DNA of 64,000 nucleotides. Origin: Cetorhinus maximus. Taxonomy: Eukaryota. The notes under the pieces were generated by a model. That model saw only the letters and a program-made list of their open reading frames with translations, was not told the DNA's origin and made no database searches. The translations under genes were made by a program, and so were the position numbers. This document shows positions 28,379 through 63,294 of the stretch, piece by piece. Numbering within the stretch: position 1 is the first letter of the stretch; each line of letters begins with the position of its first letter. Location of the stretch: assembly GCF_964194155.1 (NCBI RefSeq), contig NC_135893.1:58404001-58468000 (forward strand), given 5' to 3'.

Positions 28379-28544
28379 CTTCCTTAGTCTGTGCGTTGGT
28401 GATCTGTAAATCGCAGTCTGCCGCCTTCAGCTTCTCTCTGGCCATGATGGTCTTCTTTAGATCACTCAAAGAAATATGAAGCCCATCGAAAGTGACCGTG
28501 TCATAGTTCAGTTTAGAAGAAAATTTGTAATGTACACACGACAT
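28379..28544 (-). CDS. RBBP6: RBBP6 (E3 ubiquitin ligase / 3'-end processing factor) coding exon 1, DWNN domain N-terminal part
   Basis: Translates MSCVHYKFSSKLNYDTVTFDGLHISLSDLKKTIMAREKLKAADCDLQITNAQTKE, near-identical to the recalled vertebrate RBBP6 N-terminus; 166 nt, ends G|gtaaat (phase 1). Confidence 0.98.
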
Positions 28545-29600
28545 TTTTGTTTTTTTTTAAATGGGACAAGCCTTACCCACAAAAAAGTTTTACCCTTTTA
28601 CCACTGCAAAACACAAAAACAAAAAAAAATCCTCTTTTGCACAATTTAATATCTGAAATTCAAGTATTTTAGACTTTGTTGTATTAAAGCAATTTATAAA
28701 AAACACTATACTGGATGGTAAAGTCAGGAAATAACTGGCTTTCTTTCAACTGCACATTGCACAAAATTAAATACTAGCTGCTTTACTCACTAATAAACCG
28801 ATAGTTCAAAAGTCAATGGTATAGTTTAAATGTCCAAGAAATTGTACGAAGTCCAAAGGATTTATTTCCCAAGGTAAAGTGTTCAAAAATATTCAGTTTA
28901 TTTTCCCTCTTCCTTTTTATTACAAAGCCGCAATGCAGTAGATCTCGGCGCAGTTTTTTTAAAATCTAAGAGAATCAGATCCACGTTTCAGTCTTGGTTT
29001 CATTCGGAAAATCCTGTTGCAACGATTGTGCCTAGCTTCGTTTCTCACCCACAGACACTGTCTTCAGGGGCATCTCTAAGTATCGTCTCCTTTTAAGACT
29101 GGGAGGGTTTGTTTTAAACGAAAAAAAGTCACTCGTATTAATGGTAAAGTAAAAGAGGGAACAACAACACATAACACACACAAGGATCTAGTACCACCAG
29201 AGGTGCGCCTCTTTTTCCTCGGCAAGAGTAACTCAGGAGCAAGTGGGATCCATGGCCTATTGTCCGAAAGACTGAGGGGACAAATTGGAAATAAAGGGGG
29301 GTGGGGGTGGGGAAGGGGGTGGGAGGAATGGGGAGCTGGATGTGATACGGGAACGCAAGAGTCCGCGCTCCGAATGGACGGCACACAAGACAGGCCGACT
29401 TCCTGGCGGGTGGTTCCTAGGCTCAGTTCCAATCGAAAGGCCCGTCAGCGTCTCTCAGACACATCTTCGCACTGCAGCACCCTAACGCTCACCCATCACT
29501 ACACCTTGCATATAGCCAACACTTAAAAAAAATAAATAACCATTCAAGTACTAAACTGTTACACAGGGGCGGCGCATTAATGCCAAGTCTGAAGCAAGTC
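28545..29600 (-). other. RBBP6: Probable long (~1 kb) RBBP6 5' UTR within exon 1
   Basis: Repeat-free stretch linking the ATG to the CpG-rich promoter; mammalian RBBP6 is recalled to have a ~1 kb unspliced leader. TSS position is a guess. Confidence 0.5.
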
Positions 29601-29900
29601 CCGCAGTTTCAAACCAACACCACCTCTCCGCCACAACAATGGCGTCTCCAACGCAATAACGCCAGGGGCTTCCCACAGCCAAGTGCAGGGGCGCTTGCGT
29701 CACAATCACCACGAGAGTGTCCACGCTGCGGAAGTGACGCGCCCCGCCTGTCAATCACAGCGCTTTGTTCCCCCGCCCTCACTGACACAGCGCCAATTCC
29801 ACCGCCGCCAAAAAACCGCGAGATTGAGGTAGGTGCTCGAGCTTTATCGTCTCCCTCAGATTTAAGATGGCGTTCGTTGGAGCGGGGGTAGGTATCTCCT
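29330..29900. promoter_or_regulatory. CpG-rich bidirectional promoter shared by RBBP6 (-) and the HELZ-like gene (+)
   Basis: Strong local CpG enrichment in a CpG-depleted window; ETS-CRE composite GCGGAAGTGACGC (29728-29740), TGCGTCAC (~29696), CCCCGCC GC boxes (~29742, ~29770), CCAAT (~29793), YY1-type AATGGCG (~29638) and AAGATGGCG (29864-29872). Confidence 0.8.
29800..29887 (+). other. Probable non-coding first exon of the HELZ-like gene
   Basis: Edge of the CpG island with a YY1-type AAGATGGCG and two GTAGGT donor candidates (29829, 29888). The first coding exon at 45429 starts with a splice acceptor, so an upstream exon is required. Start uncertain. Confidence 0.55.
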
Positions 29901-31979
29901 TGTAAAAGTTGTTTTTCTTTAGCTTTTTAAAAAAACGTGCATATGTTATCGCTTTCTTCGGCTTGCTAAGAGCCAATAAAGAACGCGAAGATCCAACGGC
30001 TAGAGTGGCAGTTCGTTTATAGCGAACTATTTTTGTGTTTATTCCTCAATGTTTTATTATAAATTATGAAGGAAGTTAACTTGCTTTTTGAAAATATTTC
30101 CGTATATTCATATAGAAGCAGTTGGGGTTATACTGATAAACTGGACAGTTATTTTCCCACCATTAGCTGCTTATCCTGTGTCCTCAGGACGGGTTGCCCC
30201 AGCTCAATCAAGCTGCCCTCACCTTCTGTCATGTCGTGTCCAATCATTTGGCAGATCTGTGTATTTCATGTAATCCTAATAAAACTGGTAAGTAACTGTG
30301 TTAAAACGTGCAGTGACTGGTGCGTAAATTCTGCTACCAAATTCCAGCCCCCCCCCAAAAAGTTTTCCTTACATTCCAGATCTGTCATTCGGCAGCTGTT
30401 CATTTTAAAGAAATTGAGGCAATGCAATGTAGCCTTAACCTGAAAGTCTATTGTTAAATATGGTCCTATCATTGAGTAGTCTAAGAATGCTGATGCCAAA
30501 TGGGCAACATAAACTGCTTTGTCACTGGGTGTATTAATGTACTGGTTTGAATGCAATATTGGGAAACCACATGTAAACCAATATTTTTCAATTTTGAATG
30601 GTATTTTTATTTTTCCCATCAAGTTTCTTCTGTTGCCATCGCTTGTGACAAGCTTGCAATCACTAGTGCCTTATCCTACTTCAGACACCTCACAATGTTC
30701 ATTCAATATTTAATCCTTCATTGCACATACAATTCAATATTGGAAGAACAGAGTTTACAATTGTGCTGTAGGGTGTTTATCCACAGTTTCTGTGGACACA
30801 ATACGAGAACTTTTATTCATTCACCATTCCTTTTTGTTGATGTGGTAATGAAAACAGAAGTAGTGTAAAGGCTGAGCAAAATGTATATTCCTATGACACT
30901 TTGGTGGTATAATGTTGGTTATTTTCAAACTGATCAGGGTTGGAAACATACAAAATAAATCCTGTGCATAAGTTTCAATAGCCGTGAATGAAGTTTTGTC
31001 TTCTCATTCCAGTGTTGTGCAGTGTAACTACAGCTCCCTGTTCTACTTGCTGCTATAAAAAGTGACTGCATAAAAAAATCAAGAAAAAGCTACGGGGTTG
31101 AATATCCAGCTGGATAGATTTCTTTTGGTGCTATGAGTGTGAACCATCAGAACAAAGTTATGAGGACCCGATTTAATGACATCTTTAAAACAACATATAC
31201 TGACATAGATATGAATGCGATAACTTTTATGGAGGGGGACCTGATCCTCCTCTGTTTAAAAAACTGAAAATGCAGGAATATTCAGCAGGGCAGATAGCAT
31301 CAATTTTAGGTCCATGACCTTTCATTAGAACCTCCATCGATTGTACTTCATAGTGCGAACAGGACTAGCTTCCTTATCCTGCCAGCATTGTAGACACATT
31401 AAAATGTGGACTGATTGGTATATGGTTCTGCTGTTGTAAACATGGTTGGGAAGCTAGCACATTGCTGTTCGTTTCCCATCACTGGACCCAAATTACTGAA
31501 TGTAAATGCTTTAGATTAGGTGAGATGCACTGTGATGCATATCAAGTATGGGTATGAGAGAAGGGAATTTTACTATGTTTTGAATAGTGAAAAGTTTTAA
31601 TGCATGTTTCAAGAAAAAGTCTTAGTATTGTGACTTTTAGGGAGCTGGGTAAAACCATTTTATAAATATTTTGTGCAATGTTTGGAGGAACTGTTTTAAA
31701 AAATAAATATAAATGTCATATTGGTGTATCAATTAATTTCACAGTTTTGTGGGTTGTAAAATTACGTGTGATCATGTGGTTTAGTTATTGTGTTGACATG
31801 CCTGCTTTTGTGAGAAAGGTTTGCATTTTTGTTTTCAAACTTTGTACCCTGGAATGATTTCTAACTTCCTGTCCCAGAATCATAGAATTTTATAGCAGAG
31901 AGGTTGACAGTTCGGCCCATTTGCAGCACTCGAAAGAGTTGTGCCTCATTTCCCACCTATTTCCTTATTTCTTTTAAAA

Positions 31980-44385: not shown

Positions 44386-45443
44386 AAGACACATTGTTGC
44401 TTTTATTCCTTTCAGCTGGAAGAGCTTCGCCAGAATTGCTAAGTATTCAAGCCTTAACCTGTGAATTTAATTTTCAACTTAAAAAGGGTTTCAGATAGGA
44501 AGTTAAAAATCTTAATTCATTTAATTTAGAATTAAGAAGACACACAACTGTACCATTGTTTCCATTCATGAGTCAATTAGATCTTAATTTGCTTGGAATT
44601 TTAAATAAGATGCATACTTTTCAAACTTGATTTTTTTTTAATGTTGAAAACGATAGAAGAAAGCAATTCATGTGCTGAAAGTGTGCTTTCTAATGTGATG
44701 CTTGATCTATTGTTAAGCTACAGTTTCAAATACTAGAGGCTTGCTAAGAATGTTGAACAAGTAAACTAAAAGTTGTCACAGAGTTTTAGTGCCACTAATG
44801 TACTTGTCCTAGAATTGGTTGATACTGGTATAAAAAGTGAAAACTCTTTAGTTTCTTCAGACTGACATCCCATTTTGAGGATCACTAAAATTATTCACCA
44901 GACATTTAAAAAAAAATTATTTTGAAGCCTTTTGCACTCATTGTTCATCAGCCTCTCGCTCTACCCAAGAAAGAGAGGAATAACAAACAGGCTTTTTTTT
45001 AATGGAGCTATTACTGTGTCACACTCCTCAGTTACTTGTGCATTATTTCTGTCTTCATGTGGATATCATAGTAAATAAATGGCTGCTTTCCTGACTTAAC
45101 AAATTGCTAAAAATTAAGTAGCTTTCAGATTTTTTGGGTTTCATGTGTTTCCTTGTGTTCCCATAAATGAATGTATACACATATTCAGTGACGTTCAGAT
45201 GCCCTCTGCAATGAGAGAAACAGAGAGACTTCAAGATTAATGGAACTGAATTACTGTGGTTGGGGAAAATTATTTTGAGGCCTAGGATCAAGTAGCTTGT
45301 TGTCCTCTTTTGAGTGTTTAACAAGTACCTCTGGATGCTGTGCAAGGATGGTAGAGGACTTGCTTTTCAACTAGTGCAAAGCAATTGGACAAACGTTTCT
45401 TCAATTAATTTGTAACTATCTATTGCAGGTTTTGGTCTGAAAC

Positions 45444-45632
45444 ATGGCTGAAAGAAGGCCTGGAGAGTCTTGTGACCAAGCATACCAGCAGGCCTGGCTG
45501 CAGAAGTGTAAACTGGCATATAACTGCAAGGAAGGGCTGAATGTAACCAGCTACACTGATGGTTCTACTGCATCAGTCGAGGCTATTAGACTTCAGGAAT
45601 TACTGTACAGAATCTTATGTCTCATACGGCTG
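45444..45632 (+). CDS. HELZ: HELZ-family helicase with zinc finger (possibly a paralog), first coding exon
   Basis: Acceptor tattgcag|G at 45429, in-frame TGA just before AACATGG, donor CTG|gtaaat. MAERRPGESCDQAY...IRLQELLYRILCLIRL aligns with recalled human HELZ MEDRRAEKSCEQAC...IKIESLLYRIASFLQL. Confidence 0.9.
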
Positions 45633-48600
45633 GTAAATACTTTATTTTAACCAAAATATTTATGTTTTGATTTGAAAGGTTTCACAGCGCTTAAAAATGT
45701 TGGTCTTGTTTCTCAAAGGAATCATTTTCCATTGATGCACTGAGCAGTGCAGGCTCAGACACAACTGATTCAATTTTTTCATTTGATTTCAAAAAATTGT
45801 AAAAAATGAGGTTCAAAAGGACAAAAATGATGTCTTTATAAAGAAAAACCTGGATTTTCAACTCTAGATTACATGGTTTCCTTCCATGGTCCAAGTTAAT
45901 CCAGCCACAAAGTACAGTTTCTGAACCAGAATTATTGGATGCTACAATAAAATAAATAAAAAGATGAAGGTAACTTGGGTGCTGTGGGGAAGTTGTTCCC
46001 AATGGTTTTGCAGTTACCCATTAAAATTTTATGTAAATTCAGCAGTGAATCATGGGAAGGAATAGAATGCACTATATTGAGGTACTGCACTGGCAACCTG
46101 GAAAATGGTTTTGGGCGAGGCAGTGGGTGGAGGAGTGGAAAAATACTTGGTTTAAGGCCCTTTTTTACAGATTGAAAATAATGCCTGCATTCAGGAATGC
46201 TTTGATTAACCTATTGAAAGCAACAGAGGAATCTTAAATGCCAACAGGACTGATGGGAATAAAGTTTGAAACCGCAGCAACAATTCAGACTTATTCTGAA
46301 TGGCTTCTCGTGTTTAGATTAAACTACTGTTTTCTTGAGTAACCTTGCTGTCTTCTGAGCCAAAACATGCTTATTATTTGCCACATATGGATTAATACAG
46401 CACTGGTTTAACAGTTACATCTGACTCATGATGAATTGCTTGCTGGAGAATATGTGAGATGGCCATCATATTCTGCTGTCACCTGAAAAGGTGGAGAAAG
46501 CAGCATCAGCAGATGACTGCATACAAAAAAAGGTCAATATTTATTAATGAATAAAAGCGACAAATCAGCCAGATACTATTTAATGCATTATGCCATGGAG
46601 AAATAGAACTAATTAATTTACCATATTCCAAAAAACTGCTTCTTACACCTGTAGGTAACACCCTCCTTTGTATTAAACAGCTTTCTGTCTCCTATTTCAT
46701 TTGGGATGAGATATTGCAAATGGAATGCATGAGCTTCAAATATCCATGAAGTTCATGACTGTTTAGGACAGGATTGAGGAATATTGAAAAATAAGCAAGT
46801 ATTGTACCTTTTTGGGCTTTAAAGACAAGACAACAGGTGCTTATGAACAAAGGCAGAATACATGAGAATATGTAAAGCTTAGCACCATCTGCATCATAAG
46901 TACCTGATAAAATTTGACTATCAACTTGCACCCAGCATGAAGCAAACCAGATATTCTTTTCATCAGTAATTTCTAGACTTAGTATAAGTCTGCTCGTTTT
47001 GAATGTTGGATTGAAAAGGGAAAAGACCTTGTGTTTGTTAGCTATCAAAGAGCCCTTCTCTTAATTGATTTTTGAATAGAGGGCAGTGTTTCATTGCATA
47101 CAGCTATCAAGTCTCCTGCCTTCAATTCTAACCCTTAGGAAAGAGAGAGCAGCCACCTTTTAAAATAAAGATAAATTCCCATTTGGACAGATTTTGGAAT
47201 TTTCAAAATGCAGCAATCAAGCACTCAGTTTGTACTGAGTAATAAAATATATATTTTTTGAATTACCCAGAAGCATGGGGAGCCTATAACTTCTCTGTAA
47301 CTTTGGCCAAGGCGTTGCCATGGAGAATCAGAATAGACTTGCCAATCAATCAGCGTCCCTTTTCTGCTGTAGAATAAATCGTTGTGATCATTTGAAATTT
47401 GGCATTCTTGTGTTTGCCCTGATGAGTATAAGATGAAAAGCTTCAGCTACATGTATGTCTCTCTTTTCAGCCATATTCATGTTCTGTACTACCAAGTGAC
47501 TTAAAATATAATGCTTGATTTGAATCCATCATTTTAGTGTATATATATTTCGTCTATTCCATTCCGTTGAAAATTGCATTTCAATAACTGAAACCCATGG
47601 TGATTTCAATGTTTATCTTGGTACGTGTAAATGCACAAGCCTTACTTTACATCAAGATGCTGGGGAAGCCATGCGAGTTCTCGCAGCATTTCGTTTTGTA
47701 ACTACAGAAGGTAAAATAGATTTATATGCTGAAATTGTGCTGTTAGAACATAGTTGTAGGAAAAAACATACATAACTGGCATGCTTATTACTAATTGAGC
47801 TTTTGTTGTGAATTGTGCAGATTGTAGTGAAAGGCCATTTAGAAAGCATGATCAAATTAATTTTCCTTTTTTTTCGTTTTGTTAATAAATTTGATTAGTA
47901 AAAATACTATATGTCACATTCGTTTATGCATGTCATTTCTTGAGATTTATTTAATCTTTTAAGAGTTTATGCACTTCATGCAGGAAACCGATTTTCAATG
48001 TTTTGTATATATAGTTCAATGACCATATGTCTCTTTTGAAAATAAAGTAAAATGTGTAAGTGACTCTGCAGAAATGCTTTTCAGGAAGATAACCCAGTTC
48101 ATTGCAGGATGGATAATTGAAGTTGCAGCTTCTGTTTACCAGATGCTGTTTCTGTTGGCTTCTCCTTCTGTAGCTACTTATTTTATTTAATGTATTTTTA
48201 TTTTCTGTAACATCTACCTTGCTGCTCCCTTCTTCAATCCCTCCCCCCAGAAATAATATTATGCTTTACTCCATAACAGTGGGTTGGTGTCTTGTTCTTT
48301 GGCAAACCATTTTTTTGATCTACGGAAGGATGAAAACATTTTCATTTCCATTACCTTGCTAGTCCCAGTTGAGTCATTACAGGGGAAGAATTCTACTTGC
48401 AAACGTTGGAAGCAGGAAATTTAATTCTGTCAAGCTGTTCCTGGAAACCTAAAAACTGGAATACCCAAGGAGGCCATTTGGTCTATCCCACCTGTGCCAT
48501 CAACTGGAGTAGCTGGTTCTAATTCAATTTCTCTGCCCTATCCTTGTGTGAAATTTATATTTTATCCTTGAATTGTTACCCAGTTTCTTTTTTAAATGAT

Positions 48601-49297
48601 GCATTTGCCACTATCTCAATAGTTACTTCAAGGTAACAAATTAATAAAGTTTTTTTTTAAGCTCCTCTCTCTCTCTGTTCAATCTCCCAGTTATAATTCT
48701 GACTATATATCTCCATTTTGCTTTCATTCTAATCATTGTAGAATTGTAGCACAGCGCTCTTGGAGCTCAGTCAATACTGATCTCTAGCTACAAAGTGATG
48801 CACAAGAGTGACCCTGGAGAAACACGTGGCCTTTGTTGTGCACTTCTGCTGACATTAGGTACTTAGTGTGTGAGTAATCATAAACTCAGACTTCCTTTGT
48901 TCCACTCTGTGCCACAACACATTGGTATCCCTGTGTTCTGTGCTACCACTGTTGCTAAAATGGAAGAGTAATATTATTTGTAAAAGAGTTAATGGATCTG
49001 TTCCCTATGCTCTGTCTGCAGAGCCATGAGGCAAGCATCACATTTATTAGAGTTCATAGTGCAAGGATACTTTGTGATATTTGATACAAAATTGAAGGAA
49101 AAGAGACTTGCATTAAAATAGTGCCTTTATCTTTCTCAAACCCCCTAAAGTGCCCTTGTACAACAGACTACTTTTTAAAGCCATGGTTAAGCGGGTGAGC
49201 ACAGTAATCATTTTGCATGCCACAAGGTCCCTCGTAAGATGAATGGGCAGTTAATTTTTTGGCTGTGGTGGCTGAAAGTAGACATAGAGAACTGTCT

Positions 49298-49574
49298 AAG
49301 ATAAAAGCAAAATATTGCGGATGCTGGAAACCTGAAACAAAATCAAAAATTGCTGGAAAAACTCAGCGGGTCTGACAGCATCAGTGGAGAGAAAGACAGG
49401 GTTAATGTTTCGAGTCCATATGACTCTTCTTCAGATATATTTCACATTTTTCTTTCTCTTTAGTTCTGAAGAAGAGTCATACGGACTCAAAACGTGAACT
49501 CTTTATTTCTCTCCACTGATGCTGTCAGACCTGCTGAGTTTTTCCAGCAATTTTTGTTTTTGTTTTTGTTTGTG
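49298..49574. mobile_element. Inverted pair of Penelope-like termini with a 14-bp TSD
   Basis: ATAGAGAACTGTCT at 49284-49297 and 49575-49588; minus copy ~49298-49436, plus copy ~49446-49570. Confidence 0.88.
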
Positions 49575-50966
49575 ATAGAGAACTGTCTGTTCTTTGAAGA
49601 GTGCTGGAGAATCTTTAGCATCAATATGAGCCAACAGACAGTAGGCAGAGTCTTAGATTAATGTCTGATATAATGCAGCACTCCGGTGTGATATTGAGCA
49701 TCAATTAAATTGTGCTTGAACTCAACCTTCTGACTGAAGGGGTAAGATTGTTGCTAAGTCAAGTTAGTGCATATATTATTGTGAATGTTTTTCATTTGTT
49801 TATACATATCTCTGTTCACATGCGTGTTTGAAAACAATATAATTCATGCCTATTAACTTCCAAATATGTAGATTTACGGCTAGTATCTTGCATTCCTCAG
49901 TTTATGTAGTTGAAAAACAGGCAGTGTGCAATATTGTATATGTGTTTTTACAGCGTTCTGCTGGAATTAAATGGAGTGCAATATTACTCGTGTAATTCAA
50001 AACACATTCAACTAGTTTACTGTGAATTGTTTGACAGTCATGTCTTCCCTAGATGAGTCAGGGCACCTGAGAAGATGCAGGTATATTTTACTTAATAAAA
50101 ACTATAGGCTGTCTATCGTTGCCTGACACTGATTATTTCTTAAAGTTGCTAAACTGGCTTGAATTTTACTCTTGTGATTTGATAGAGACATTGTTTAGTT
50201 GAACTACTATCTGTAATTCTCTGTCAACTATCTGCTGAGTGTATTTTTCAATACTGTTACGGATGGGGAGAGGTGGTGGGGTAACTTTTCCCCTTTTACC
50301 TTACCTCTTGGTTGTTTGCAACAAGATGTATATTTTAGAGGGAGTGTTTTAAACCCTTTGGGTGTTGTGACTTTAAAGGATAAAACATAAAACAAGCTTT
50401 CGGATAAGTTGAAATCAAAAGACAAGATACACGTTTATTCACACAACACCCAGAATGTAAACACAATACAACACTCATTCCCTCAAACACACAGGCATAT
50501 ACACACAAGGAAATATATATTTTACAGATGACTTGTGCACTTCGATTTTCTTATTATTCTGTTATTAATCTATCACGTGTTTGAATTGATCCTTTAAGGC
50601 GAACTCGTTGCAGGCCTGGATGGGGGCCCTCTCTTGTGGTTCTTTGAAGGTGAATAGAGATTGGAAATCTCTGGATTTTCAGATGAAGTTGCATTCGAGC
50701 TTCTGTAGAAAAAAGAGATTTTTTTTTGCAGGTGGGAACAAATTAGCCCCTCTCCCACTGCCATGGTTGACTGATTGTTAGGCAGGGATCTATCTTCTTG
50801 CTGGAGGATGGTCCCTCTTGTGCCCTATGTGTCGTCTCTAGTAAGTTTTGATCATGTGATCCATGGTTCTATTATCCACACGGACGATATGATGTTAGAA
50901 GCCATTACCATACAATGGGGGATGTTCATACCTGCTTTTAATAAACTGGGTTCTCCCCAACTCTCT

Positions 50967-51858
50967 AAAACAAAAACAAAAATACCTGGAAAAGCTCAGC
51001 AGGTCTGGCAGCATCTGTGGAGAGGAACACAGTTAACGTTTCGAGTCCGTATGACTCTTCAACAGAACTAAGTAAAAATAGAAGAGAGGTGAAATATAAG
51101 CTGGTTTAAGGGGGGGTGGGACAGGTAGAGCTGGATAGAGGGCCAGTGATAGGTGGAGATAACCAAAAGATGTCATAGACAAAAGGACAAAGAGGTGTTG
51201 AAGGTGATGATATTATCTAAGGAATGTGCTAATTAAGGGTAGAAAGCAGGACAAGCAAGGTACAGATAGCCCTGGTGGGGTGGGGTGAAGGAATCGAAAT
51301 AGGCTAAAAGGTAGAGATAAGACAATGGATGGAAATACATTTAAAAATAATGGAAATAGGTGGGAAAAGAAAAATCTATATAAATTATTGGAAAAAAAGG
51401 GGGGATCGGAAAGGGGGTGGGGATGGGGATGGAGGAGAGAGTTCATGATCTAAAATTGTTGAACTCAATATTCAGTCCGGAAGGCTGTAAAGTGCCTAGT
51501 TGGAAGCTGAGGTGCTGTTCCACCCGTTTGTGTTGAGCTTCACTGGAACAATGCAGCAGACCAAGGATGGACATGTGGGCATGAGAGCATGGTGGAGTGT
51601 TGAAATGGCAAGCGATAGGGAGGTCTGGGTTATGCTTGCGGACAGAACGAAGGTGTTCTGCAAAGCGGTCACCCAGTCTGCGTTTGGTCTTTCCAATGTA
51701 GAGGAAACCGCATCGGGAGCAACGAATGCAGTAGACTAAATTGAGGGAAGTGCAAGTGAAATGCTGAAATGTTTGGGCCCTTGGACTGGGAGGAGAGGGG
51801 AAGTAAAGGGGCAGGTGTTGCACCTTCTGCGGTTGCATGGGAAGGTGCCGTGGTTTTA
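50967..51858 (-). mobile_element. 5'-truncated Penelope-like element with GIY-YIG endonuclease remnant, 15-bp TSD
   Basis: FTCTSLNLVYCIRCSRCGFLYIGKTKRRLGDRFAEH...QPSGLNIEF; TCTCCCCAACTCTCT at 50952-50966 and 51859-51873. Confidence 0.92.
51031..51069 (-). ncRNA. Minimal type I hammerhead ribozyme-like motif in the Penelope terminus
   Basis: AGTT-CTGTTGA-A-GAGTC-ATACG-GACTC-GAAAC-GTT-AACT: stem I AGTT/AACT, stem II GAGTC/GACTC, loopless stem III; one core mismatch to CUGANGA. Confidence 0.65.
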
Positions 51859-51954
51859 TCTCCCCAACTCTCTGTTAGCTTTCAAGCTATCACATACTGA
51901 GATGGAGGGGAGTGGGGTAGTTTCTGTAAATATCCAGACAATAAGGTGGTGGTG

Positions 51955-52320
51955 GGGGATGGTGGTGTAATGGTAATGTCACTGGACCAGTCATCCAGAG
52001 GCCCAGGCTAACACTCTGGTTCAAATCCTACCACGGCAGCTGATGGAATTTAAGTTCAATTATTAAATCTGGAATATAACGCTAGTCCAACTATCAGCAA
52101 TTGTTGTAAAAACCCATCTGGTTCATTAATGTCCTTTTACGGAAGGAAATCTTCCATCCTTCCCTGGTCTGGTTTACATGTCCTCCTGACCCCCACAGCA
52201 ATGTGTTTAACTCTTAACTGCCCTCTGAAATGGTCTAGCAAGCCACTCAGTTCGAGGACAATTAGGGATGATCTTGGCCTTGCCAATGATGCCCACATCC
52301 CATGAAAAACTAAAAAAAGA
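51955..52320 (+). mobile_element. Near full-length tRNA-derived SINE
   Basis: A-box tggtgtaatgg, B-box ggttcaaatcc; same body and tail as 24281-24628. Confidence 0.85.
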
Positions 52321-55300
52321 GATAAAATCAGAGGTGGTTTCGTATCCAGAATGCCCCTTCAAGGGAAGAGCACACCACCCATGGACATTTGCCGTTTAAT
52401 GACTTTACAGAGACATGAGCTTGTTCTTTGTCTGTGCAGAAATTACAAAAGTCTCCTGACCCCCATGCTCCATTTTGGGGCAAGATACATTGTCCCAAAA
52501 TGTCCATTGTCTTCATACGCTTGCGGGTTTGATACAAGCATGACATTACCCAGAGCTTGTTATTTAAAGATTTTTGTACTTTCTGGTGAGCCCACAAATT
52601 CCTTTTTCTGTGAAGTGATTTACACATTGCAGAAAAATTTGAGTCGCAGTTGGATTAAATGAACTGTAACTAAACATGATTGACAGAATAGTGACTGGAA
52701 TTTCTTACCATTGCTGTCTCTGAAAAGTAACTATTGCTAACGTTTTCAGCACTAATACATTTTGGTTAGTATGAAGGAAACCTGCCTGTTGCACATTTCT
52801 CTGGAAAGAAGATGGGAAAGTTGAGGGACTGTACCATCCCCCAGTTGGAAGCAAGTATCTGCTCACATTTTCCCCCAGAAAATGGTCTCTGATGTGAGTG
52901 GATTTTTTTTTAAGCAAAGGGTGAACCAAAATTTCTTTGTTTTAATATTTGTTGTAGAGAGTAATTTTGAAATTAGATAGGGCACCTACAGTTCCGGCTT
53001 TCTGAGCTTGCTGCACTGCCAGCAGGAAGCCCAAATTTAAATCTATTTTAGTATTTTGAGTCTAACATGATTCTTCTTCAGAACTCCAAGTCATATTAGA
53101 CTCGATGTCTCTTTTTCTCTCCACAGATGCTGCCAGAATTGCTGTTTTTTTTCAGCATTTTGTTTTTATTTCAGATTTCCAGCTTCCGCAGTAGTTTTTT
53201 TATTTGAATCCATTTTGTTGGACATGTTATAATTGGGTTTCCTTCACATTTTGTCAACATCTGCCAGTGCACAGGGACGGCACAGGGAACAGAAACTGGA
53301 ACACTGTCTTGGTTAAGGTCTTTTTATACCCTGCTCAAGTTACGTTCCCAGTTGGATATGCAAAGGAGTGAGAAGGAAACAAATTGTTTCATGGGGCAGA
53401 TGTAAACGATCCCTCAGCAGTATTTGAAGAATGGGGACATTTTTGTGTGCCAGTTAACGTTTATCCCTCTGCTAACATCTTAAAACAAATCTGATCCCTT
53501 AACTCAGTGGTATTGGCTGTTGTGTTTACCTACATAACACAATTGACAACCAATAAACATTGTTGGTGCATTCTGAAGACATGAAAGGTGCTATATAAAT
53601 GCAAGTTTGTCATTAAGACGCAGATTGACGGAGCCAAGGGTTATTGATTAACTTTGGGGCTAGAATTACTGCTTGTCCAGCTCAGATTGCCATACCTGTC
53701 AGAAAATTGGATTTTCTTTAGCTAAGTCAGAAAAATCCAAGCCTCCAGTGATTGGTCCATTCTTATAGCTTTTATTACTGAGGCAGGCAAACTGACCGAT
53801 CATCAACAATGTCCTGGAGTAATGCATACCTGTAGGGTTCTTGTATTGGATGACCTAATCCTAAGCTTCTATCACCAGTTTTGTCATTTTCGGCCAAAAG
53901 GGACCTTTTTTTATATCTTCCTTCTTACAAGAAGAGTTGCAAATCAGTTATTAGCCAACTGATGACTGTGGATTTGGGTTCTTGTATATCCCATGGAGTG
54001 GTATTTTCACTAGTTGGAGGTGTAGCAGTTCGGCAACACCTCCTTTTCACAGCCCAATCATGATGGATATTGAATCCTGGCTATATGTTTGCATATTCTC
54101 ATCTGTGGCCTCCAGGTAAAAATCTTCCAGCAGTAGTCAATTTGATTCTGGGTTTTCTCAACAGCAATTGCCTTTGTTGTGGTGGAATGACCTACAATAG
54201 GATACTGTGTTGTGTTAGCCACAGTGTTGTTGAGATGGTTCACTTATCCCCAACAGCTTAATTGTGCTCATCTTAAAGGTATTAAGGAATATGAGGCTAA
54301 AGGGGATATAGAGTTAGGTTGCAGATCAGCTACAATTTAATTGAATGGCAGAACAAGCTTAAAGGGCTAAATTATCTACCCCTGTACCAATGTTTCTAAA
54401 GAGGTGCATCTGCAATGAGGCTGCCTCCAGGGTCCACAGTGATAGGTTGACATAGGCCATGAATTCATCTCAATGCTTTGTTCTGGATCTCGAATCAGGT
54501 GAAGACCAGAGGCCGTGAAGAGCTCTTTCAGACAGGTCTTGTACACCTTATGCTTGCCTTGGATTAGGAAGTGGCTGTTGCTGAAGAAAGACCATTTGAG
54601 TAGGGTCCTGAAGGAGTGACTTCCAGGACCCTGAAAGACGACGATGAATCAGAAATGTATATATCTTGTAAAACCCTTTTAAGCTCCCCTCTTAGGCTCT
54701 ATAAAGAGGCACTATATCTGAGATGACCTACTACTATATTTCACAGTTTAACCCACTGACTCACATTCTGGATAGAGTGCATTGGGCCCCAGGTGAGTCT
54801 GCTAATAACACTATTGTCTGCAAAAAGGAGCACCACAATACTTTTAAAAAACATGTACAACTGACATTAAGTCCAGTCCTTAAATATCATTCCAAAATAT
54901 TATGGATGAAGGACAGTGGACAGCCTCTCATTGGCTATGTGATCTTGTTACCCAGCCTTTTGGTATTTGAGATCTGAAGCACTTTTTTCTCAATGACGGT
55001 TTGAACTATTTTGTTGCAGTTGGATAAAAGTATCAATGTGGAAGGTAGTGTTCCAGGAATCTTAAACACCAGGAATAAAAATCCATGTAATTGGCAGCAT
55101 GGAAAGAACTTACAGTTTTACTGATAGGTAAATTGCTTGGGAGTTCAGGAAACCATGGAACTGAGCTGAAAAGAAGCTGAATCATACATTTACTCAATAT
55201 GTGACTTATACTGGACCAATGACAAGTGTTATTGATGGGTTGATGACATTGAGGAAGAAACACTCAATGTACTTGCTAAAAAGTGCCTGATTTAATGTAT

Positions 55301-55771
55301 AATGTAATGTTTTTCCTCAAAGCTAAATGGACCTAATCATGCAATGCTTTCCAAGAGCTAAGAAGGTATTGTATTTATTCACTTTGTGAATAGGAGACTA
55401 AAAATGTTCTGTTCATGATATGAAGGGGTGAGATTGGGAGGCACTTTTCAGGAAAACAATGACTGGCTACCTACAAGTGTACAAACATGTCTTCACAGTA
55501 TTGTCTGTCAATGAATATAACTATAATAGATGTACTACACAAGATTTACAACCCAGTTAAATATAATTTGCACATGTATGAGCTTAATTGCAGGGCGAGA
55601 GTCACTATTTTCCTAAATTTACTGAATTGTTGCCAGTCTGCAAAGTTCAAAGAGAAGGATGGTCTTTGAATATAGAGAAATATTTGTGATGGGTAGATGT
55701 TAGTTTGGAGACTGTATCCAAGGCTAGGCATTGGAGGTGCTTTGCAGCACATACCTGCAACATTGCCTCTT

Positions 55772-56170
55772 TTTTTGAGAAAAAGTCAGTCATGGGATGT
55801 GGACATCCATGGCATTTATTGTCTATCCCCAGTTGCCTTGAGAAGGCGATAGACCATCTTCTTGAACAGCTGATAGAGGTTTCATACAACAAAGTGCCTT
55901 GCTGGGGCAATTAAGAGTCAACCACATTGGTATGGGAACTAGAGTCACATATAGGCCAGACTGGGTGGTAGGTTTCCTTCCGTAAAGGACATTAGTGAAT
56001 CATTAGGACTTTTATGGCAATCTGACGGTCCTTCATGGTATCGGCATTTTATTTCAACATTTCTTTTGAACTGAATTAAATTTGTCAAACTGCCCTGGTA
56101 GGACTTGAGCTCATTTTTTTCTGAATTATTACTTCAGGCACCTTGACTACTAGTCCAGTAACAACTACCT
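55772..56170 (-). mobile_element. tRNA-derived SINE, same family, reverse orientation
   Basis: catgggatgtggac..., aagagtcaaccacattg, ggtttccttccgtaaaggacattagtgaa. Confidence 0.8.
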
Positions 56171-57289
56171 AACTGAAACAGTTGCTCTTGCTTTTTAAAA
56201 AAAACCCCACCAGATTGGGGTAAACAGTAGGTGGGAAGAGAAGGTGATGAAAAACAAAACATTGTTTGATATACTGGGCTGACTTAGAATAAGAATGAAA
56301 AAGATACAAATGATTCTTGGCATGTTTTTATTATATGGCTAACTTGATTAGTGCTTAGCTTGTAGCAACTGGTCTATGATTTTGAGAGGAGATGATCTTT
56401 CAGTTGGCCTTGAAGGTATTAGTTGCAGAGTACACTTGCAGCTAACATATTAAGTCACACAGCTGCATTTTTAATTATTAATGAGGGTATTGATTGTGGT
56501 GACAATTGGTCAAAGTAACAAAAGTTAAAATAGAATTTAAAAAGTCTATGAAGAATGCCATCAGGAATTAACTCCTGATTTTGCCTGTGGCTGGATGAAG
56601 ATGGTCAATATGTTCTTTTGAATGAGAGAGAGAGACACTCACACATTCAAAGGGCTTGGTGACTTAATTTAATGTCATCGGGCATCTAACATGGTTAAAG
56701 AAGAAAAGTTTTTCCATCTGTAAAACTGGTCCATGAAGTTCAGGATGTGGTAACAACTTTTCAATAACTGCACTTTTTCCATAGGTGTTCCTCAGTTCCA
56801 TTGGTGCTGACCAAATACTGTAAATGTCATTCATGCACTTTTGGTATTTCTAATCTTAAGAATAAGGTTGGACTTAGCCTACAAATTACCCTATTTAACA
56901 ATAATGCTCTACATTAGAATCCATGTTGGATTTTGACTACTTTGCCTGTCTCTTGAAAAATGGAAAAAACACATTTGGAACCAGACTAGTGTAACCTAAA
57001 ATTATTTCTTCAGTTTATTTGTGTCAATTCAATTTACAAAAGCAAAGATACAAGATAATTAATACATCTAAAATGTCTGGAGATGTTCCACAGAGAGCAA
57101 CTTAACATTTTTTCAGCTTCATACTCCGATGCTAAAAAAGAAACAGTCCTGTATACTCTGTGCCAGCAATGCCTTTGAGTTCAATCAAGGTTTTCTTTCA
57201 TAATGTAAGCTTTTGTTACAAAGCTGCTTCATCCTGATGTGCTTTCACTGAGAGAGAAAGCTGATGAACCATGACACACTTTTAAAATT

Positions 57290-58215
57290 TGCATGCAGGT
57301 TCTGGTTGATGGCAAAGCCACAATTTTATTGCCCATCCTTAGTGGCTCTGAGGAAGTGGTTATGGGTCTTTTCCTTGAACTGCTGCAGTCTTTGTCCTAA
57401 TGGAGCTCCCATTGTGTTAAGTAAGGAGTTGAAGCATAGCCTGTGTACAAGTCAGGATGGTGGAGAACTTGAAGGTGCTGGTGTTCCCACGCTCTTTCCT
57501 GTGCTAGAGGTTGCAGGGCTGAAAGGTGCTGTTGACTTAAGCTTTGTAAGTTGTGACTGTGTCCTGCAGATCGTACATACTACAACCACAGTATAATAGT
57601 GATGGAGGCGTGATATATTGAGAGGTAACAAGCAGATTGCACTATTCTGAATTGTTGAAACCATCTTGAATATTGTGGCAGCTGCACCAAAATAGGAGAG
57701 CGAAGTATTCCACTATGTTGTCAACTTGACCCTAGTAGGTGGCAGCAGGCCAGGAGATGAGCTACTTATTGGAGTACCCTGCCTCAGCCTGGCTTTCAAC
57801 CATGGTGCTCCAATTAAGCATCTGGTCAAGATGTTGATGGTAGGTCACTTGCAATGATGGTGTCATTTAAGTTCATCAAGAAGTGTGTTTTTTGTTAGAG
57901 ATAGTTATTTCCTGACACTCGGGTAGTGTGAATGGTATCTGTAACTTGTCAGCCAAATGTTATCCAGGTTCTGCTGTAGACTTGCATGTGCTCCTTCATT
58001 ATTAGAAGAGTTGGGAATGGAGCTGAAAATTGGGAAATGGTTGACAAGCAATTACAATCATGAATTTATATTGGAGGAAAGGTCATTCATCAAATGGCTG
58101 AAGATGGTTGAGCCAAGGAAGCCGTTCTGAGGCACACCTGCAGCAAAGTCTTGAGGCTGCGATGATTGGCCTTGCCAATCATGACTGTCTTCCTTTAAAT
58201 ATGATTCCAGCCTTG
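57290..58215 (-). mobile_element. Degraded LINE related to the 32596-34400 element
   Basis: Reverse 3' tail ttttattgcccatccttagt...ccttgaactgctgcagtc and aaggtcattcatcaaatggctgaagatggttg. Confidence 0.65.
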
Positions 58216-59688
58216 ATGGCAGCCGCTGTTTACTTTTTCTCTGATATTTAGCTTGCCTTAATATCTCGATGATGGTGTTGATGAGATCTGAAGCTTTTGA
58301 AGATGTGATTACTCAGCGACTATCTCAGTACTAATGCTGTTCCCCTATATAACAACACAGATTCTCATAAGATTTACCCGAGGCTGAAATGCAATATTAT
58401 GGAAACCAACCACTGGAGACAGCTGAAGGACCTTTTTGAAATAAATTAGCACAATCTGCAATGGGGGTTTGTAGTTTGCAGTGTCCCGTCAACATTTTAA
58501 ACAAACTGTTCTCATCAAATGGATCCTTTTTTCCTAATTAACTCTTGATGAAAGAGAAACTGCCTATTTTATTCAACAGATGTTAATGTCCTTCATTTTA
58601 AACTTGGGGAAGGGACAACCTCTATTTTAAATTTCAGTTTCTTTTGCAATATTCCATTTGGTTAGGTTTCTTCCATGAAATAACAAGGAAGACTTTACAG
58701 AATCATAGAAATTACAACATAGGAAGTCAATCAGTTATTAGCTAATGCTAGTTCATCAAGTCCCCCATAAAATACGTGCCCTTGCCACTAATTTCATAAT
58801 TTTTGACCACTTGTCTAAGACCGCGTCATTCATTTGCACCCTTTGCATCGTGTTCAACCTTGAATTGACCTTCAGTCCTCATACTCTTTCCATCATAAAG
58901 ACTGCTTACTCTCACCTGTGCAACATTGCCCACCTCTTCCCATTTCCGTGCCTATTCCACTGAGACCCTCAACATGTCTTTGTTTCTTCACATTTGACTG
59001 CTGAACACTCTCCTCGCTGGCCTTACAGTCTCTATCCTCTTAAACCCCCACTTATTCAAATCTCTGCTACAGATAACATATCCCTCTTACCACTTCCTTG
59101 CTGATGTACATGAGCTTCCAGTCCTCCAAAGTACGAATGTAAAATCCTCGCTTTCATCCTTAAATCTTTTTGTGGTTTTATTGCAACCTCATTTACCCAC
59201 AAGCAGCCTGTTTTTCTGATGCTGCTTCTTGCACGTCTCATCCTTACTTTGTCCTTCTATTGCTGGTATATACTTCAGCTGGTATATCCTCCCTTCTTTG
59301 CATGGGGGGAGAGGAAGTTAATTTTACAGTGAAAATAGCTTGCATGCATTTGAAATAAGCATTGGGAAGCACGTTTTTGTTATTTTTAAATGTGTATTTG
59401 CTGTGTTTCACATGTAGTTCATTGGCAGGGCATGGAGCGCACTGTCGCAGATCTAGGTGTGCTCTTAGTTTTTGGAGGGGTGCAGATGAGGAAGATGGGA
59501 GAGGTATAAATTGAATGTAATGCGTAATATTGTCCTTAGGTGAATACAAACAATCTAAATTTTAACACTTTAAATTGTATGTTATGTGATGGATTTTGCC
59601 AATAAACATGGGAATAGTATTAAATATTAGTTATTGTGTAGTATTTTGGCACTTGATTGAATGTAAATATTTTTGTATTTCTTTACAG

Positions 59689-59725
59689 AAGAATTACAAA
59701 GAGGCTGAAGAAGATTGTAAAAGTG
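59689..59725 (+). CDS. HELZ: HELZ-like coding exon 2
   Basis: ctttacag|AAG AAT TAC...AGT G|gtaagt; 37 nt; KNYKEAEEDCKS vs HELZ KNYVQADEDCRH. Confidence 0.92.
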
Positions 59726-59904
59726 GTAAGTTGCATAAAATGGCTTCCATTAATTATATGTGTAAATATAATGTTTTCTGTTGAGGTTTTTTAGGAATTG
59801 TTTTTAAAGTTTTAATATTGAAAAAAAACAACCTATATATATTTAGTATGGCTTTTGGTGATAGATGTATTTTTCACATGTTAATTAACTGTTCTGTTCC
59901 CAAG

Positions 59905-60029
59905 TTTTATGCTTCCATGAAATTCTGGGGGAAAACCTGTTAAGAGATGTGTTGGCATCACTGGTTCTAGAGGGAAAACTGAAGGATGTTTATGATGCTT
60001 TGTGCGATTGTAAGACTGAAGACTGTATG
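59905..60029 (+). CDS. HELZ: HELZ-like coding exon 3
   Basis: gttcccaag|TT...ATG|gtaggt; 125 nt; (V)LCFHEILGENLLRDVLASLVLEGKLKDVYDALCDCKTEDCM aligns without gaps to HELZ [42 protein letters not shown]. Confidence 0.88.
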
Positions 60030-60126
60030 GTAGGTCAGCATTTTGGCGATTGAAATTTGTTTTTTAATTAATGCGATTTCAGTAGAATTCATAGCGCACA
60101 AAGCACATGTCGCTTTATGCTTCCAG

Positions 60127-60183
60127 AATGGAGCCTCCTTAAGTCATCTGAGACGGCTACTGCACTTACTGACGGAGTTGCAG
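60127..60183 (+). CDS. HELZ: HELZ-like coding exon 4
   Basis: gcttccag|AAT...CAG|gtaaga; 57 nt; NGASLSHLRRLLHLLTELQ vs HELZ NGMVTKDLTRLKTLLSETE. Confidence 0.9.
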
Positions 60184-61371
60184 GTAAGAGATTAATGTAT
60201 GATTATAGAACTTAAATATGTTTCCCTTGAAACAAGTAATGCGAGAGCAGGTAACTGTTCTGTGCGTTTTTGGGAGGGTGGGAATTTGAGTATACTGCAT
60301 TATTTCATTAGATACAGAATGGATGATATGTTAGGGTTAAGTTCCTCCTACTGTCACTGACAATATGCCTCATCTCCAATCTCTGAGAAGCACACCCAGC
60401 TATGTCAGTGTGATATGGTAATTTGTTAAATCAACAATCTGTCAGTGAGAATGCTATATTAGGTGCTGATTCTATTTTGTGTATGGATTTATGGCTACTG
60501 GGAAACAACCCTCTGAACTAGGACCCCAGCATCTGGTAGAGACCAATGATGATCTGGGCTAGATCAATTTAAGGCACAAAAGTTGAGAATTTGAACACTG
60601 CTATTGTATTGCCATTATTAGTAGTTTTTGAGATCTTGTCTATTGCTTTATTATCAAAGATTCTTTCTGGCTAAGTCACTAAAAATGGTTAACCCCCTCC
60701 ACGGGCCCGACGTGACTTCGCCCTCCCAGGCCGCCAAAATCTTACTCTCCAGGAGCCTGACGTACCTGGTTCCCTGGGCTCCAGCCTCGACGTTCCAGGC
60801 TTCCCGGGCTCCGGCCCTGCCATACCTTTGCTTCCCTCGGTCCAGTAGGCCTCAACACACTCACCAACGCCAGTGTTTTCTGTCCTCCAATCAGAAACTG
60901 TTTCTTTCCCTCATGTGGGAGAGAAGCAGTCTCTGATTGGAGGAGTAGCTCCATGCAGAATCTTCTATCAAAACACAGCTGTTTTACCCGAATTTTGAAA
61001 ACTGGCTCTGGGGGCTGCATCCTATGTGGGTTGTACATTGGACAAGCCTGTGTTAGAATGTTTGAAGCTTCAGTGTGCATTATGTTAACTGTGAATGCTC
61101 TGGACTTTCTCAGAACAATATAACAAGAAATTGTAAATGCTTACATTTCCAGTTCTAGGTAGGACCCAGGTACCATACCATACCTTGTTAAAGCAGGTCA
61201 TAACTGTTCTGAAGGTAGAGAATATTATGTGACTCATGTACAGTGGTTTGCACAATCTATTATAAATGTGTTGCAGATACTTAGTTACATTTGTAAACAG
61301 TGATGCAGAAGATTAACAGAAACTTTAAGGATTTTAATTATTTATGTGAAGTTTCTTCTTTTTTTAAGCAG

Positions 61372-61417
61372 GCTGCAACTAATGGTGCTCTCTTTTCATC
61401 AGAGCAAGATGCCAAAG
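61372..61417 (+). CDS. HELZ: HELZ-like coding exon 5
   Basis: Long polypyrimidine tract then aagcag|GCT...AAA G|gtgtgt; 46 nt; AATNGALFSSEQDAK vs HELZ TATSNALSGYHVEDLDE; supplies the phase 0 to 1 change the next exon needs. Confidence 0.72.
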
Positions 61418-63218
61418 GTGTGTGCTGACATTGTGAAGCTAAATTCATTCCTGCAACAAATAATAATGCTCTTTAAAAAAAAGAACAATGTCACCTCTGA
61501 CACTGACAGAATCTTTATTGGTATGTCTCCCTGATAGGAGAAAGTTGTGGACACTTCACTGAGATTACACCTCATCTAGTGTTTGAGTAGCTTTGCTAGA
61601 GGTGGCTTTAGAAAATGGCTAATACAGTGCTATTTTAATATTCGTTAATACTTGGCACAAATGTAGTATCTATATAAAAAGAAAACTAGGGTGATGTTTG
61701 GACCCTTCAACCCATTTATAGAACAAATCAAAACTTACAGTGAGTTATTAGAACAGTGGTATTATGCTACATATTTTCAGGGATGCTTATTTATCAACAC
61801 TGGGGGTGGCCCTGGGATTTGAGATCACTGGGAAAGGGGCCTCAGATGTAGTCACACTTGATGGGTCGTTCTTGTGGTCTAGGAGTACAGGAGAGTTGGG
61901 GGATTGGTGGGGGGTGGGGTGGTGGTGGTGGTTGGTGGTGGTAGCGGTGCACCTGAAATCATTGGCAGAGGAGTCCTAGGATCTGGAGTATTGTAGAAGG
62001 AGATTCTAGTGCTTGGGTGCATTGTGTTGGTTTGAGATTAAAGAACTCCGAATAGTACAAGGATTGAACAATGCAATATAGAGGTTCTGAGCATGAAGGG
62101 GTCTTGGAATCGGGAAGGGGCATGTTTTGAGGAAGCATTCTTGGGTTCCAGCAAGACTGTTTATAAGCTTCTTTATTTAGGAGGAATCGCCAAAAGACTT
62201 GAGAATGCTGCATTGAATTTCTAAAAATATTCCTGGTCTATATGTGCATGCACATTGCTCCACCTCCTATCCACATGGTGCAACAGGAGCTTTCTTTAAT
62301 TGGATCATACCTATTTTTTATGGAAAACTTAGTAAACTGAAGTTAAAATAAATCTTTGATGTTTGGTCTTTTTACTTAAAAAAAATTGGAGTATGGGATG
62401 GTTTGTGGAGCAGTAAATGGTGTTATGGAGTGAAATGAGAAGAGTTTTAAGTTGGTGGTTCATTTGAGAGCAAGGATGAAAGTTAGAGGAAGAACAGATT
62501 TTCTTTGCTCTTTTGAGGCTTTTGAGAGTTGATTTGAGGAGCAGCACTGGGAGTAAGCTGCCTATTTTGCATAGAAGAATAGAATAGAATGATAGACCAT
62601 TCCTGTGTCGACTCTTTGAAAGAGCCCTCCATTAAACCCCACTCTCTTGCTTTTTGGCCCATAGCTCTGCAAAAGTTTCCTTTTATAAGTGTATACCCAA
62701 TTCTTTTTTGAAAATTACTGTTAAAATACATAATTCAGTCATGTATCTAAAAACATCTTTCGAAAGGAGAAGAATAATAACATCTTCCCCACATTTTTGA
62801 TGGCAGGAGGGTGGTGATGCAACTGATAATAATTGAATTAATAAACTAATATATGGTATAACTCTTTGGTGAAGAACCAAAAACATGGGGGAGAAAGATT
62901 TTTGGTTCTTTTCAGCCTTATGGTTAACCATGCTGATTGATTGTAGCGAGACAGGTTTATCACTGACCTTTCCCACATGGCGCATTTGGGTTTCAGCTAG
63001 AGCCATTTGGGAATATGGCTTCCTCAAGTGATGTGAAGAAAATCAGAAGGGAAGAATCTTCTAGAATTCTACTGTCTGCACCTTTTTATCCAGGATGCTG
63101 ACATTGATTAGCTACTAATCGTGATCACTGGACCAGGTTCTTGCTTACACCCTGGGGAGGCTGAATGCATGTTATGGAGACCTTAGACAGAAAAGTAATT
63201 TTTTCAATTGTCTTTCAG

Positions 63219-63294
63219 AAAGTGAATGTCGATGGAAGTTCCGTCCACCTCCACGAGGTGTTGTTGGAATTGATGAGTATTCCTTGTGTTGCCA
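63219..63294 (+). CDS. HELZ: HELZ-like coding exon 6, start of the CCCH zinc finger; gene continues beyond the right edge
   Basis: tctttcag|AA...CA|gtaagt; 76 nt; (E)SECRWKFRPPPRGVVGIDEYSLCC vs HELZ [25 protein letters not shown]. Confidence 0.92.

Follow-up and report, generated by a model that had tools for sequence, protein, structure and literature searches.

In this study, we describe a second HELZ-type gene, here termed HELZ-like, whose first coding exons lie in a 64,000-nucleotide stretch of the genome of the shark Cetorhinus maximus (NC_135893.1, positions 58,404,001 to 58,468,000; G000:C15:58404001-58468000 of a 4.0-Gb genome; hereafter the window, with positions counted from 1). The encoded protein is predicted to be a catalytically dead or strongly slowed pseudo-helicase that would act as an mRNA adaptor rather than as an unwinding motor, a reading to which we assign a probability of roughly 0.6. 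The gene itself is very likely an ohnolog of HELZ from an early vertebrate genome duplication, because it has mirrored CACNG-PRKC neighbours, has introns in common with HELZ and belongs to a clade of its own that is sister to HELZ. A sequence-only reading of the window had already proposed such an ohnolog, placed in the 16p12 paralogon and distinct from HELZ and HELZ2, and the tree, the neighbours and the intact frame reported here support it. Its further suggestion of an uncharacterised UPF1-like RNA helicase of superfamily 1 (SF1) holds for the UPF1-like core, and we found no separate description of the gene; as to activity it is probably wrong, because key helicase motifs are degenerate.

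Gene structure, origin and distribution

Six exons had been joined in the window beforehand, and we confirmed that they have canonical AG/GT ends and an open joined frame. Splicing was followed in run X1, which comes from a related organism, is RNA only by guess and provides transcript evidence for exons 1-7, not for the helicase exons. The parts of the gene are:

30121..30287, plus strand: 5′ untranslated exon; a 1557-base X1 contig covers 30121-30289, then the 45429 exon
45429..45632, plus strand: coding exon 1 (ATG at 45444); first-exon protein matches; joined to exon 2 in X1 (with a loose end at 59688)
59689..59725, plus strand: coding exon 2, 37 bases; matches HELZ in length and phase; spliced in X1
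59905..60029, plus strand: coding exon 3, 125 bases; from HELZ comparison; spliced in X1
60127..60183, plus strand: coding exon 4, 57 bases; from HELZ comparison; spliced in X1
61369..61417, plus strand: coding exon 5, 49 bases; HELZ exon equally long; long form in RefSeq shark models
63219..63294, plus strand: coding exon 6; ends within the first cysteines of the CCCH zinc finger; spliced in X1
beyond the window, up to G000:C15:58886477, plus strand: exons 7-28; Walker B exon at C15:58584244-58584362

Exon 1 alone retrieved four shark proteins (75-89% identity, E 4e-19 to 1e-27), so that the exon similarity is not due to chance. The modest identity of exons 2, 3 and 4 to HELZ, counted by hand against the human protein as 7/12, 14/42 and 8/19, was recovered as 7/12, 13/42 and 9/19 in an ungapped recount against two primate HELZ proteins (P0032, P0040). 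Guided by the shark proteins retrieved with exon 1, the whole gene was mapped on 480 kb of downstream DNA, giving 28 coding exons with 5334 bases and 1777 codons over a span of 437 kb; the downstream exons were checked for stops and frameshifts, and none was found in the 28-exon frame. All 27 acceptors are AG, and the donors comprise 26 GT and one GC. The GC donor is that of exon 11 (G000:C15:58498298), at an intron for which HELZ uses GT. A Carcharodon RefSeq model matches the protein at 99% identity and those of five other sharks at 91-94%; over the whole protein, identity is 76% to that of chimaera, with 54% in sturgeon and 44-48% in elopomorphs.

The sequence-only reading had pointed to PRKCA and CACNG1 as the place to look for a second, closer HELZ copy, and canonical HELZ was found there, at G000:C25:50178758-50384938, with 30 exons, 1928 residues and all canonical motifs, a few C-terminal junctions of this model being approximate. 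Downstream of it, all on the minus strand, lie CACNG1, a CACNG4-type gene (called by position and a gamma-2-like best match, with no gamma-4 chain among the matches), CACNG5 and PRKCA, the last 37/38 identical to the alpha chain. To the right of the window, CACNG3 and PRKCB were both found as proposed, downstream of HELZ-like and on the minus strand, PRKCB being identified by its beta-II last exon. The gene orders therefore mirror each other, with HELZ-like(+) CACNG3(-) PRKCB(-) on C15 and HELZ(+) CACNG1/4/5(-) PRKCA(-) on C25, which gives two paralog pairs. We take the C25 order to be that of human 17q24, where HELZ lies by PRKCA-CACNG5-CACNG4-CACNG1, and the C15 order to be that of human 16p12. 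By its neighbours, HELZ-like is thus not the HELZ orthologue: it lies beside CACNG3/PRKCB, and CACNG1-CACNG4-CACNG5-PRKCA flank the C25 gene.

Of the 27 introns compared between HELZ-like and C25 HELZ, 19 coincide in aligned codon and phase, and 24 lie no more than 4 residues apart. These shared positions indicate that the copy arose at the DNA level, and they rule out origin as a retrocopy. The two proteins are 46% identical overall (802/1738) and 63% identical in the helicase core (291/465). A genome search with exon 10 (12 candidates scored) matched C15 and C25 only, with no third HELZ-type copy; an AAA_12 profile search of the genome (41 candidates scored) missed the HELZ-like gene and is not used as evidence. 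A likely HELZ2 locus, with two AAA_12 sets and 37-39% identity to the HELZ-like protein, is situated at G000:C13:38.58-38.63 Mb.

Phylogenetic analysis (32 rows, 950 columns, LG+C20+F+G4; 11 HELZ-like and 12 HELZ rows) with HELZ, HELZ2 and invertebrate proteins placed the HELZ-like proteins, including those of chimaera, sturgeon, eel and bonytongue, in a clade of their own (100/100) that is sister to vertebrate HELZ (100/99). Jointly the two form a vertebrate clade (99/99) excluding amphioxus, other invertebrates and HELZ2; the C25 gene falls inside vertebrate HELZ, and HELZ-like does not. Branching among the HELZ-like members tracks species, with chimaera and sharks, then sturgeons, then elopomorphs and osteoglossomorphs, the teleost rows having long branches and unusual composition. 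The stem branch of HELZ-like is five-fold longer than that of HELZ (0.46 vs 0.093). On a 13-row subset, approximately unbiased (AU) tests rejected both a duplication confined to cartilaginous fishes (p 7e-51) and a split predating amphioxus (p 9e-60); tree and tests together place the duplication between the divergence of amphioxus and the separation of sharks from bony fishes. An identity as HELZ2 or as a misplaced HELZ was ruled out by the tree, the domain content and the separate C13 locus.

The gene had been described as kept in this lineage, which is true of the shark and too narrow for the family. We found members in sharks of several orders, Callorhinchus, Acipenser, Huso, Polyodon and Amia, as well as in Aldrovandia, Conger, Anguilla, Synaphobranchus, Gymnothorax, Arapaima and Brienomyrus, that is, also in chimaera, sturgeons, paddlefish, bowfin, elopomorphs and osteoglossomorphs. 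Two protein searches (8000 candidates scored) covered the best 120 of 537 and the best 120 of 302 matches, and among the matches listed no protein of a tetrapod, lungfish, coelacanth, gar, bichir, ray or other teleost ranked above canonical HELZ. A further unindexed search added 146 new matches, of which 7 were clearly closer to HELZ-like than to HELZ, all from shark, bowfin, eel or bonytongue; for one shark protein cluster, 15 of 20 members were covered. From these sequences, the gene is likely absent outside these fishes, including in tetrapods. For the mammalian locus, the likely absence follows from the protein searches and from human gene order, in which no HELZ gene is known between CACNG3 and RBBP6. 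Two observations stand beside this distribution. The annotation of Amia ocellicauda splits the gene into three successive fragments of a single contig (P0270, P0306, P0320), reflecting either a broken gene or a poor model. Some invertebrate proteins of 3000-3700 residues have a HELZ-like first half (P0234-P0246 region; for example P0236 from amphioxus, 3279 residues) and are possibly HELZ2 relatives.

Helicase motifs and retained domains

Sixteen key positions, which align with the motifs of UPF1, were compared across HELZ-like (29 rows), vertebrate HELZ (161 rows) and 28 further top matches (6 named invertebrates); the rows include isoforms and are not independent, and counts refer to rows covering the position. 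Gaps aside, the 189 HELZ rows compared have no change at any of the 16 positions. The gene described here has Walker B Glu to Asp at residue 788, motif Ia Asn to Asp at 693 and motif V Gly to Asp at 978. Its Walker B motif consequently reads Asp-Asp (codons GAT GAT at G000:C15:58584267) where UPF1 has an aligned Asp-Glu. The catalytic base, the Walker B Glu, is Asp in 12/12 cartilaginous HELZ-like rows and Glu in 161/161 vertebrate HELZ rows and 28/28 further top matches, and bony-fish HELZ-like rows keep it in 13/14, with Asp in Brienomyrus. The most widespread change concerns motif Ia, where Asn is replaced by Asp or Glu in all 25 HELZ-like rows with a residue. In motif V (Gln-Gly), the Gly is altered in 12/13 cartilaginous rows, and the motif VI Arg (arginine finger) is Cys in 6/6 elopomorph rows and Ser in Arapaima (7 teleost rows lost), being retained in sharks, sturgeons, bowfin and Brienomyrus. 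Other positions are preserved: this gene has the motif III Gln, the motif IIIa Arg and the motif VI arginine finger, the Walker A (Lys-Thr) Lys is present in 27/27 HELZ-like rows, and the motif III Gln and motif IIIa Tyr occur in every HELZ-like row covering them. Divergence within the sharks extends to the Stegostoma protein (P0176), in which Ser replaces a Walker A Gly and Gly replaces the motif IIIa Arg. Counted by region, near-invariant columns altered in this gene number 2/44 in the zinc-finger half, 21/112 in the core and 0/7 around PAM2. The alterations are concentrated in the motifs, with 15/59 near-invariant motif columns affected vs 8/104 elsewhere (p 0.004).

The roles of these residues have been described for related enzymes. 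In UPF1, D636 and E637 belong to the nucleotide site, and the substitutions R703A and R865A abolish ATP binding and hydrolysis, according to the accessible portion of the source (PMC6888360). In IGHMBP2, the motif Ia Asn touches the RNA phosphate backbone and the motif VI Arg the gamma-phosphate (PMC3505976, in its available text). A precedent for the Walker B change is RecA E96D, which, in the part of the source at hand, binds DNA and has lost its ATPase (PMC6182174).

Outside the motor, the protein keeps the domain plan of HELZ. A CCCH zinc finger (C-x8-C-x5-C-x3-H) at residue 176 has its ligand spacing, with zf-CCCH Pfam scores of 27.9 bits in chimaera, 26.2 in sturgeon, 20.2 in Carcharodon and 16.9 in eel (cut-off 20.5). 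AAA_11 and AAA_12 scored above cut-off in 4/4 orthologs scanned, and UPF1 was the best PDB sequence match. After the helicase core lies a PAM2 motif, whose 11-residue core is identical to that of HELZ and which scores 16.6-19.5 bits with Pfam PAM2 (cut-off 20); it is followed by a C-terminal tail with several blocks and short motifs common with HELZ, some conserved to eels. The Cys/His ligands, PAM2 and the C-terminus are preserved from sharks to eels. A model of the chimaera ortholog (mean predicted local distance difference test score 68, predicted template-modelling score 0.52, second RecA domain partly low) matches the folds of Sen1, UPF1, senataxin and IGHMBP2, with E of about 1e-20 to 1e-18 for Sen1, UPF1 and IGHMBP2 and template-modelling scores of only 0.3-0.5. 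The modelled fold is thereby supported, and the model says nothing on activity. The Brienomyrus protein (P0211) carries seven tandem PAM2 cores in its tail together with its independent Walker B Glu to Asp change; this array may fit selection for binding of poly(A)-binding protein (PABP) without a motor, or be an annotation artefact.

Transcripts and the RBBP6 neighbour

In run X1, one 1557-base contig splices the 30121-30287 exon to exons 1-2-3-4-5-6-7 across GT-AG introns, and the 3 exon differences of this organism are all synonymous. Runs X2 and X6, whose kind is not on record, read through the same stretch unspliced; run X7, RNA by guess, had 0 contigs on exons 2-6, which counts as no evidence. 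Exon 5 has three acceptors, namely a tandem pair at 61369/61372, giving in-frame exons of 49 or 46 bases, and an inner acceptor at 61403, giving 15 bases and a frameshift; the inner acceptor possibly reflects regulated unproductive splicing. The RefSeq shark models with the long exon 5 are predictions.

Further variation concerns the 5′ end. A 22-codon upstream open reading frame begins at ATG 30231 (window 30231-30287 and 45429-45440) and stops 3 bases ahead of the main ATG, in frame with it. A catshark model (P0170) begins with a near-identical peptide, spliced directly to exon 2 with exon 1 skipped. The reading frame is either a conserved upstream open reading frame or an alternative N-terminus. 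Two other catshark models (P0162, P0169) omit exon 3 and take an upstream exon 4 acceptor, and at 60083-60183 the window has this frame open as well, with the same peptide.

HELZ-like lies head-to-head with RBBP6, and two features complete the window:

28379..28544, minus strand: RBBP6 first coding exon (DWNN domain), 52/55 identical to PDB 2C7H; head-to-head neighbour of HELZ-like
29200..30000, no strand: CpG-rich stretch between RBBP6 and HELZ-like; GC 0.46-0.61, CpG observed/expected 0.69-1.46 (200-base windows)

The figure for RBBP6 exon 1 equals the 52/55 counted beforehand, and this exon has a single match in the genome (2 candidates scored). The X1 contigs over the RBBP6 leader end at 29691 and the HELZ-like contig begins at 30121, a gap of about 430 bases between contigs that give neither transcription start sites nor strands. 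The CpG-rich stretch and this spacing are consistent with a shared bidirectional promoter, which we consider likely.

Proposed function and relation to known systems

By sequence, HELZ-like is a HELZ-family member that is neither the HELZ ortholog nor HELZ2 and that fails the motif test for an active UPF1-like helicase. The shark protein probably has no helicase activity, and we lean slightly towards a role as an adaptor that would work through PABP and CCR4-NOT. PAM2 and PABP are a textbook pair. Mechanistically, ATP would still be bound and would be hydrolysed poorly, and with an acidic residue in motif Ia the protein would hold the RNA backbone less firmly, such that it would neither translocate nor unwind. 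It would dock on PABP via PAM2 and recruit CCR4-NOT via its low-complexity tail, like a HELZ without the helicase half. Human HELZ unwinds RNA-DNA hybrids and requires its Walker A to do so, as stated in the accessible text of a report (10.1101/2023.12.14.571747), and a C-terminal fragment of HELZ by itself binds NOT1, NOT3 and PABPC1 (PMC6769256, available part). After the duplication, the roles may have been split, with HELZ keeping the motor for R-loop unwinding and HELZ-like the adaptor role, whose redundancy with HELZ would account for the repeated loss of the gene. The RNA grip may have been lost early, given the common motif Ia change, and the catalytic residues later and separately per lineage. 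More tentatively, and at a little under even odds, the sequences may record a HELZ ohnolog that gave up translocation and then lost hydrolysis independently, through different residues, in the cartilaginous-fish, eel and bonytongue lineages, with ATP binding, the zinc finger and a PABP/CCR4-NOT docking tail retained; it would be the first natural UPF1-like SF1 pseudo-helicase found.

Several points weigh against this picture. The inactivity of HELZ-like is a prediction from sequence, and Glu to Asp is a conservative change whose RecA precedent is from a different enzyme family. HELZ-like evolves faster throughout, its helicase core being 84% identical between shark and chimaera vs 97% for HELZ, and the motif windows used to count altered near-invariant columns were drawn after the alignment was seen. 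Shark model P0179 retains the motif V Gly. Furthermore, the motif VI Arg and, in rows covering it, the Walker B Asp-Glu are retained in 5/5 sturgeon and paddlefish rows and in the bowfin rows; given these members, the entire clade cannot be called dead. On the adaptor side, identity to HELZ drops to 33% in the C-terminal tail (210/632), and the accessible part of the HELZ source used does not map the CCR4-NOT sites to motifs. The sole assembled transcript, from the relative in X1, takes the inner exon 5 acceptor, which leads to a frameshift and a stop after 219 codons. As to origin, the tree holds no lamprey or hagfish, and either round of genome duplication, or a large segmental duplication, may have produced the copy.

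The main rival explanation, a helicase or RNA-dependent ATPase that is active and slowed or re-specialised, for instance as a slow-release clamp, appears unlikely and is best supported in sturgeons and bowfin, with their retained Asp-Glu and motif VI Arg. It would explain the universal Walker A Lys, the motif III Gln and IIIa Tyr found in all covering rows, the identity of the core between shark and chimaera and the match of the chimaera model to Sen1, UPF1 and IGHMBP2. It is harder to reconcile with lineages having lost different residues that are invariant in the 189 HELZ rows, namely the Glu in cartilaginous fishes and Brienomyrus and the Arg in elopomorphs and Arapaima, a pattern that fits relaxed selection on hydrolysis. 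An improbable alternative is that HELZ-like competes with HELZ, occupying PABP/CCR4-NOT or HELZ RNA targets and thereby tuning HELZ output rather than silencing mRNAs itself. A degenerate motor alongside a PAM2 and several C-terminal blocks common with HELZ would suit such a competitor; nevertheless, HELZ's C-terminal half carries the CCR4-NOT binding (PMC6769256, in the part available), and a paralog with a tail of this kind would be expected to repress as well. Finally, a decaying duplicate, transcribed merely through a shared RBBP6 promoter and heading for loss, is very improbable: the frameshifted only transcript, the bowfin gene annotated in three pieces and the lack of members among the matches listed for tetrapods, gar, bichir, rays and most teleosts point that way, and against it stand the 5334-base frame intact across 28 exons, the 76% identity to chimaera, the 3/3 synonymous exon differences in the related organism and the Cys/His ligands, PAM2 and C-terminus kept from sharks to eels.

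Reading HELZ-like as a pseudo-helicase with an adaptor role invites comparison with known systems. With HELZ it has in common the CCCH finger, the UPF1-like core, PAM2, a low-complexity tail with the same terminal aromatic motif and nearly the same introns. It differs by its separate clade and locus, by degenerate motifs Ia, II, V and VI, and by being about 150 residues shorter, a post-PAM2 stretch being absent in cartilaginous fishes and present in sturgeon. HELZ2, an RNB exoribonuclease-helicase, is related to HELZ-like in its first helicase half, and HELZ is named as the closest relative of the HELZ2 helicase domains in the accessible part of PMC10516660; however, the HELZ-like orthologs (4/4 scanned) have neither RNB nor a second helicase among their Pfam matches, and the HELZ2 rows lie far outside in the tree. 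As in the pseudohelicases C. elegans MUT-15, yeast Utp25 and Deinococcus PriA, described so in the portions of the sources available, the fold is kept, catalytic motifs are degenerate and a scaffold role is envisaged. MUT-15, in that same material, is DEAD-box-like, whereas HELZ-like is UPF1-like SF1 with Walker A intact and an inactivity deduced from its residues. Utp25 and PriA are likewise of the superfamily 2 (SF2) type. The distribution resembles that of nanos1B, an ohnolog retained in cartilaginous and basal bony fishes and lost in many bony vertebrates (PMC5932020, available part); HELZ-like additionally loses different catalytic residues by lineage.

Literature searches, which covered open papers incompletely, returned no paper separating a second HELZ gene or noting its motif loss, and there was no HELZ match in the supplementary files of PMC13450315 (1 file, not its ohnolog database), PMC3964593 (1), PMC8455134 (12/24) and PMC8302630 (4/5). 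RefSeq predicts HELZ-like proteins under HELZ's own generic name. With identical database names for both genes, tallies of HELZ and orthology assignments conflate two genes in sharks, sturgeons and eels.

A retained ohnolog by itself is ordinary. HELZ, however, has two reported jobs, ATP-dependent R-loop unwinding and helicase-independent CCR4-NOT recruitment, and HELZ-like, with its motor degenerate and its docking motifs intact from sharks to eels, would represent a natural separation-of-function allele. As such, it may reveal the surfaces of the helicase fold that are important even when catalysis is absent and mark as candidates the short tail motifs common to both copies. If the proposed function is true, the HELZ/HELZ-like pair separates in nature the motor role, in R-loops, from the adaptor role, in mRNA decay.

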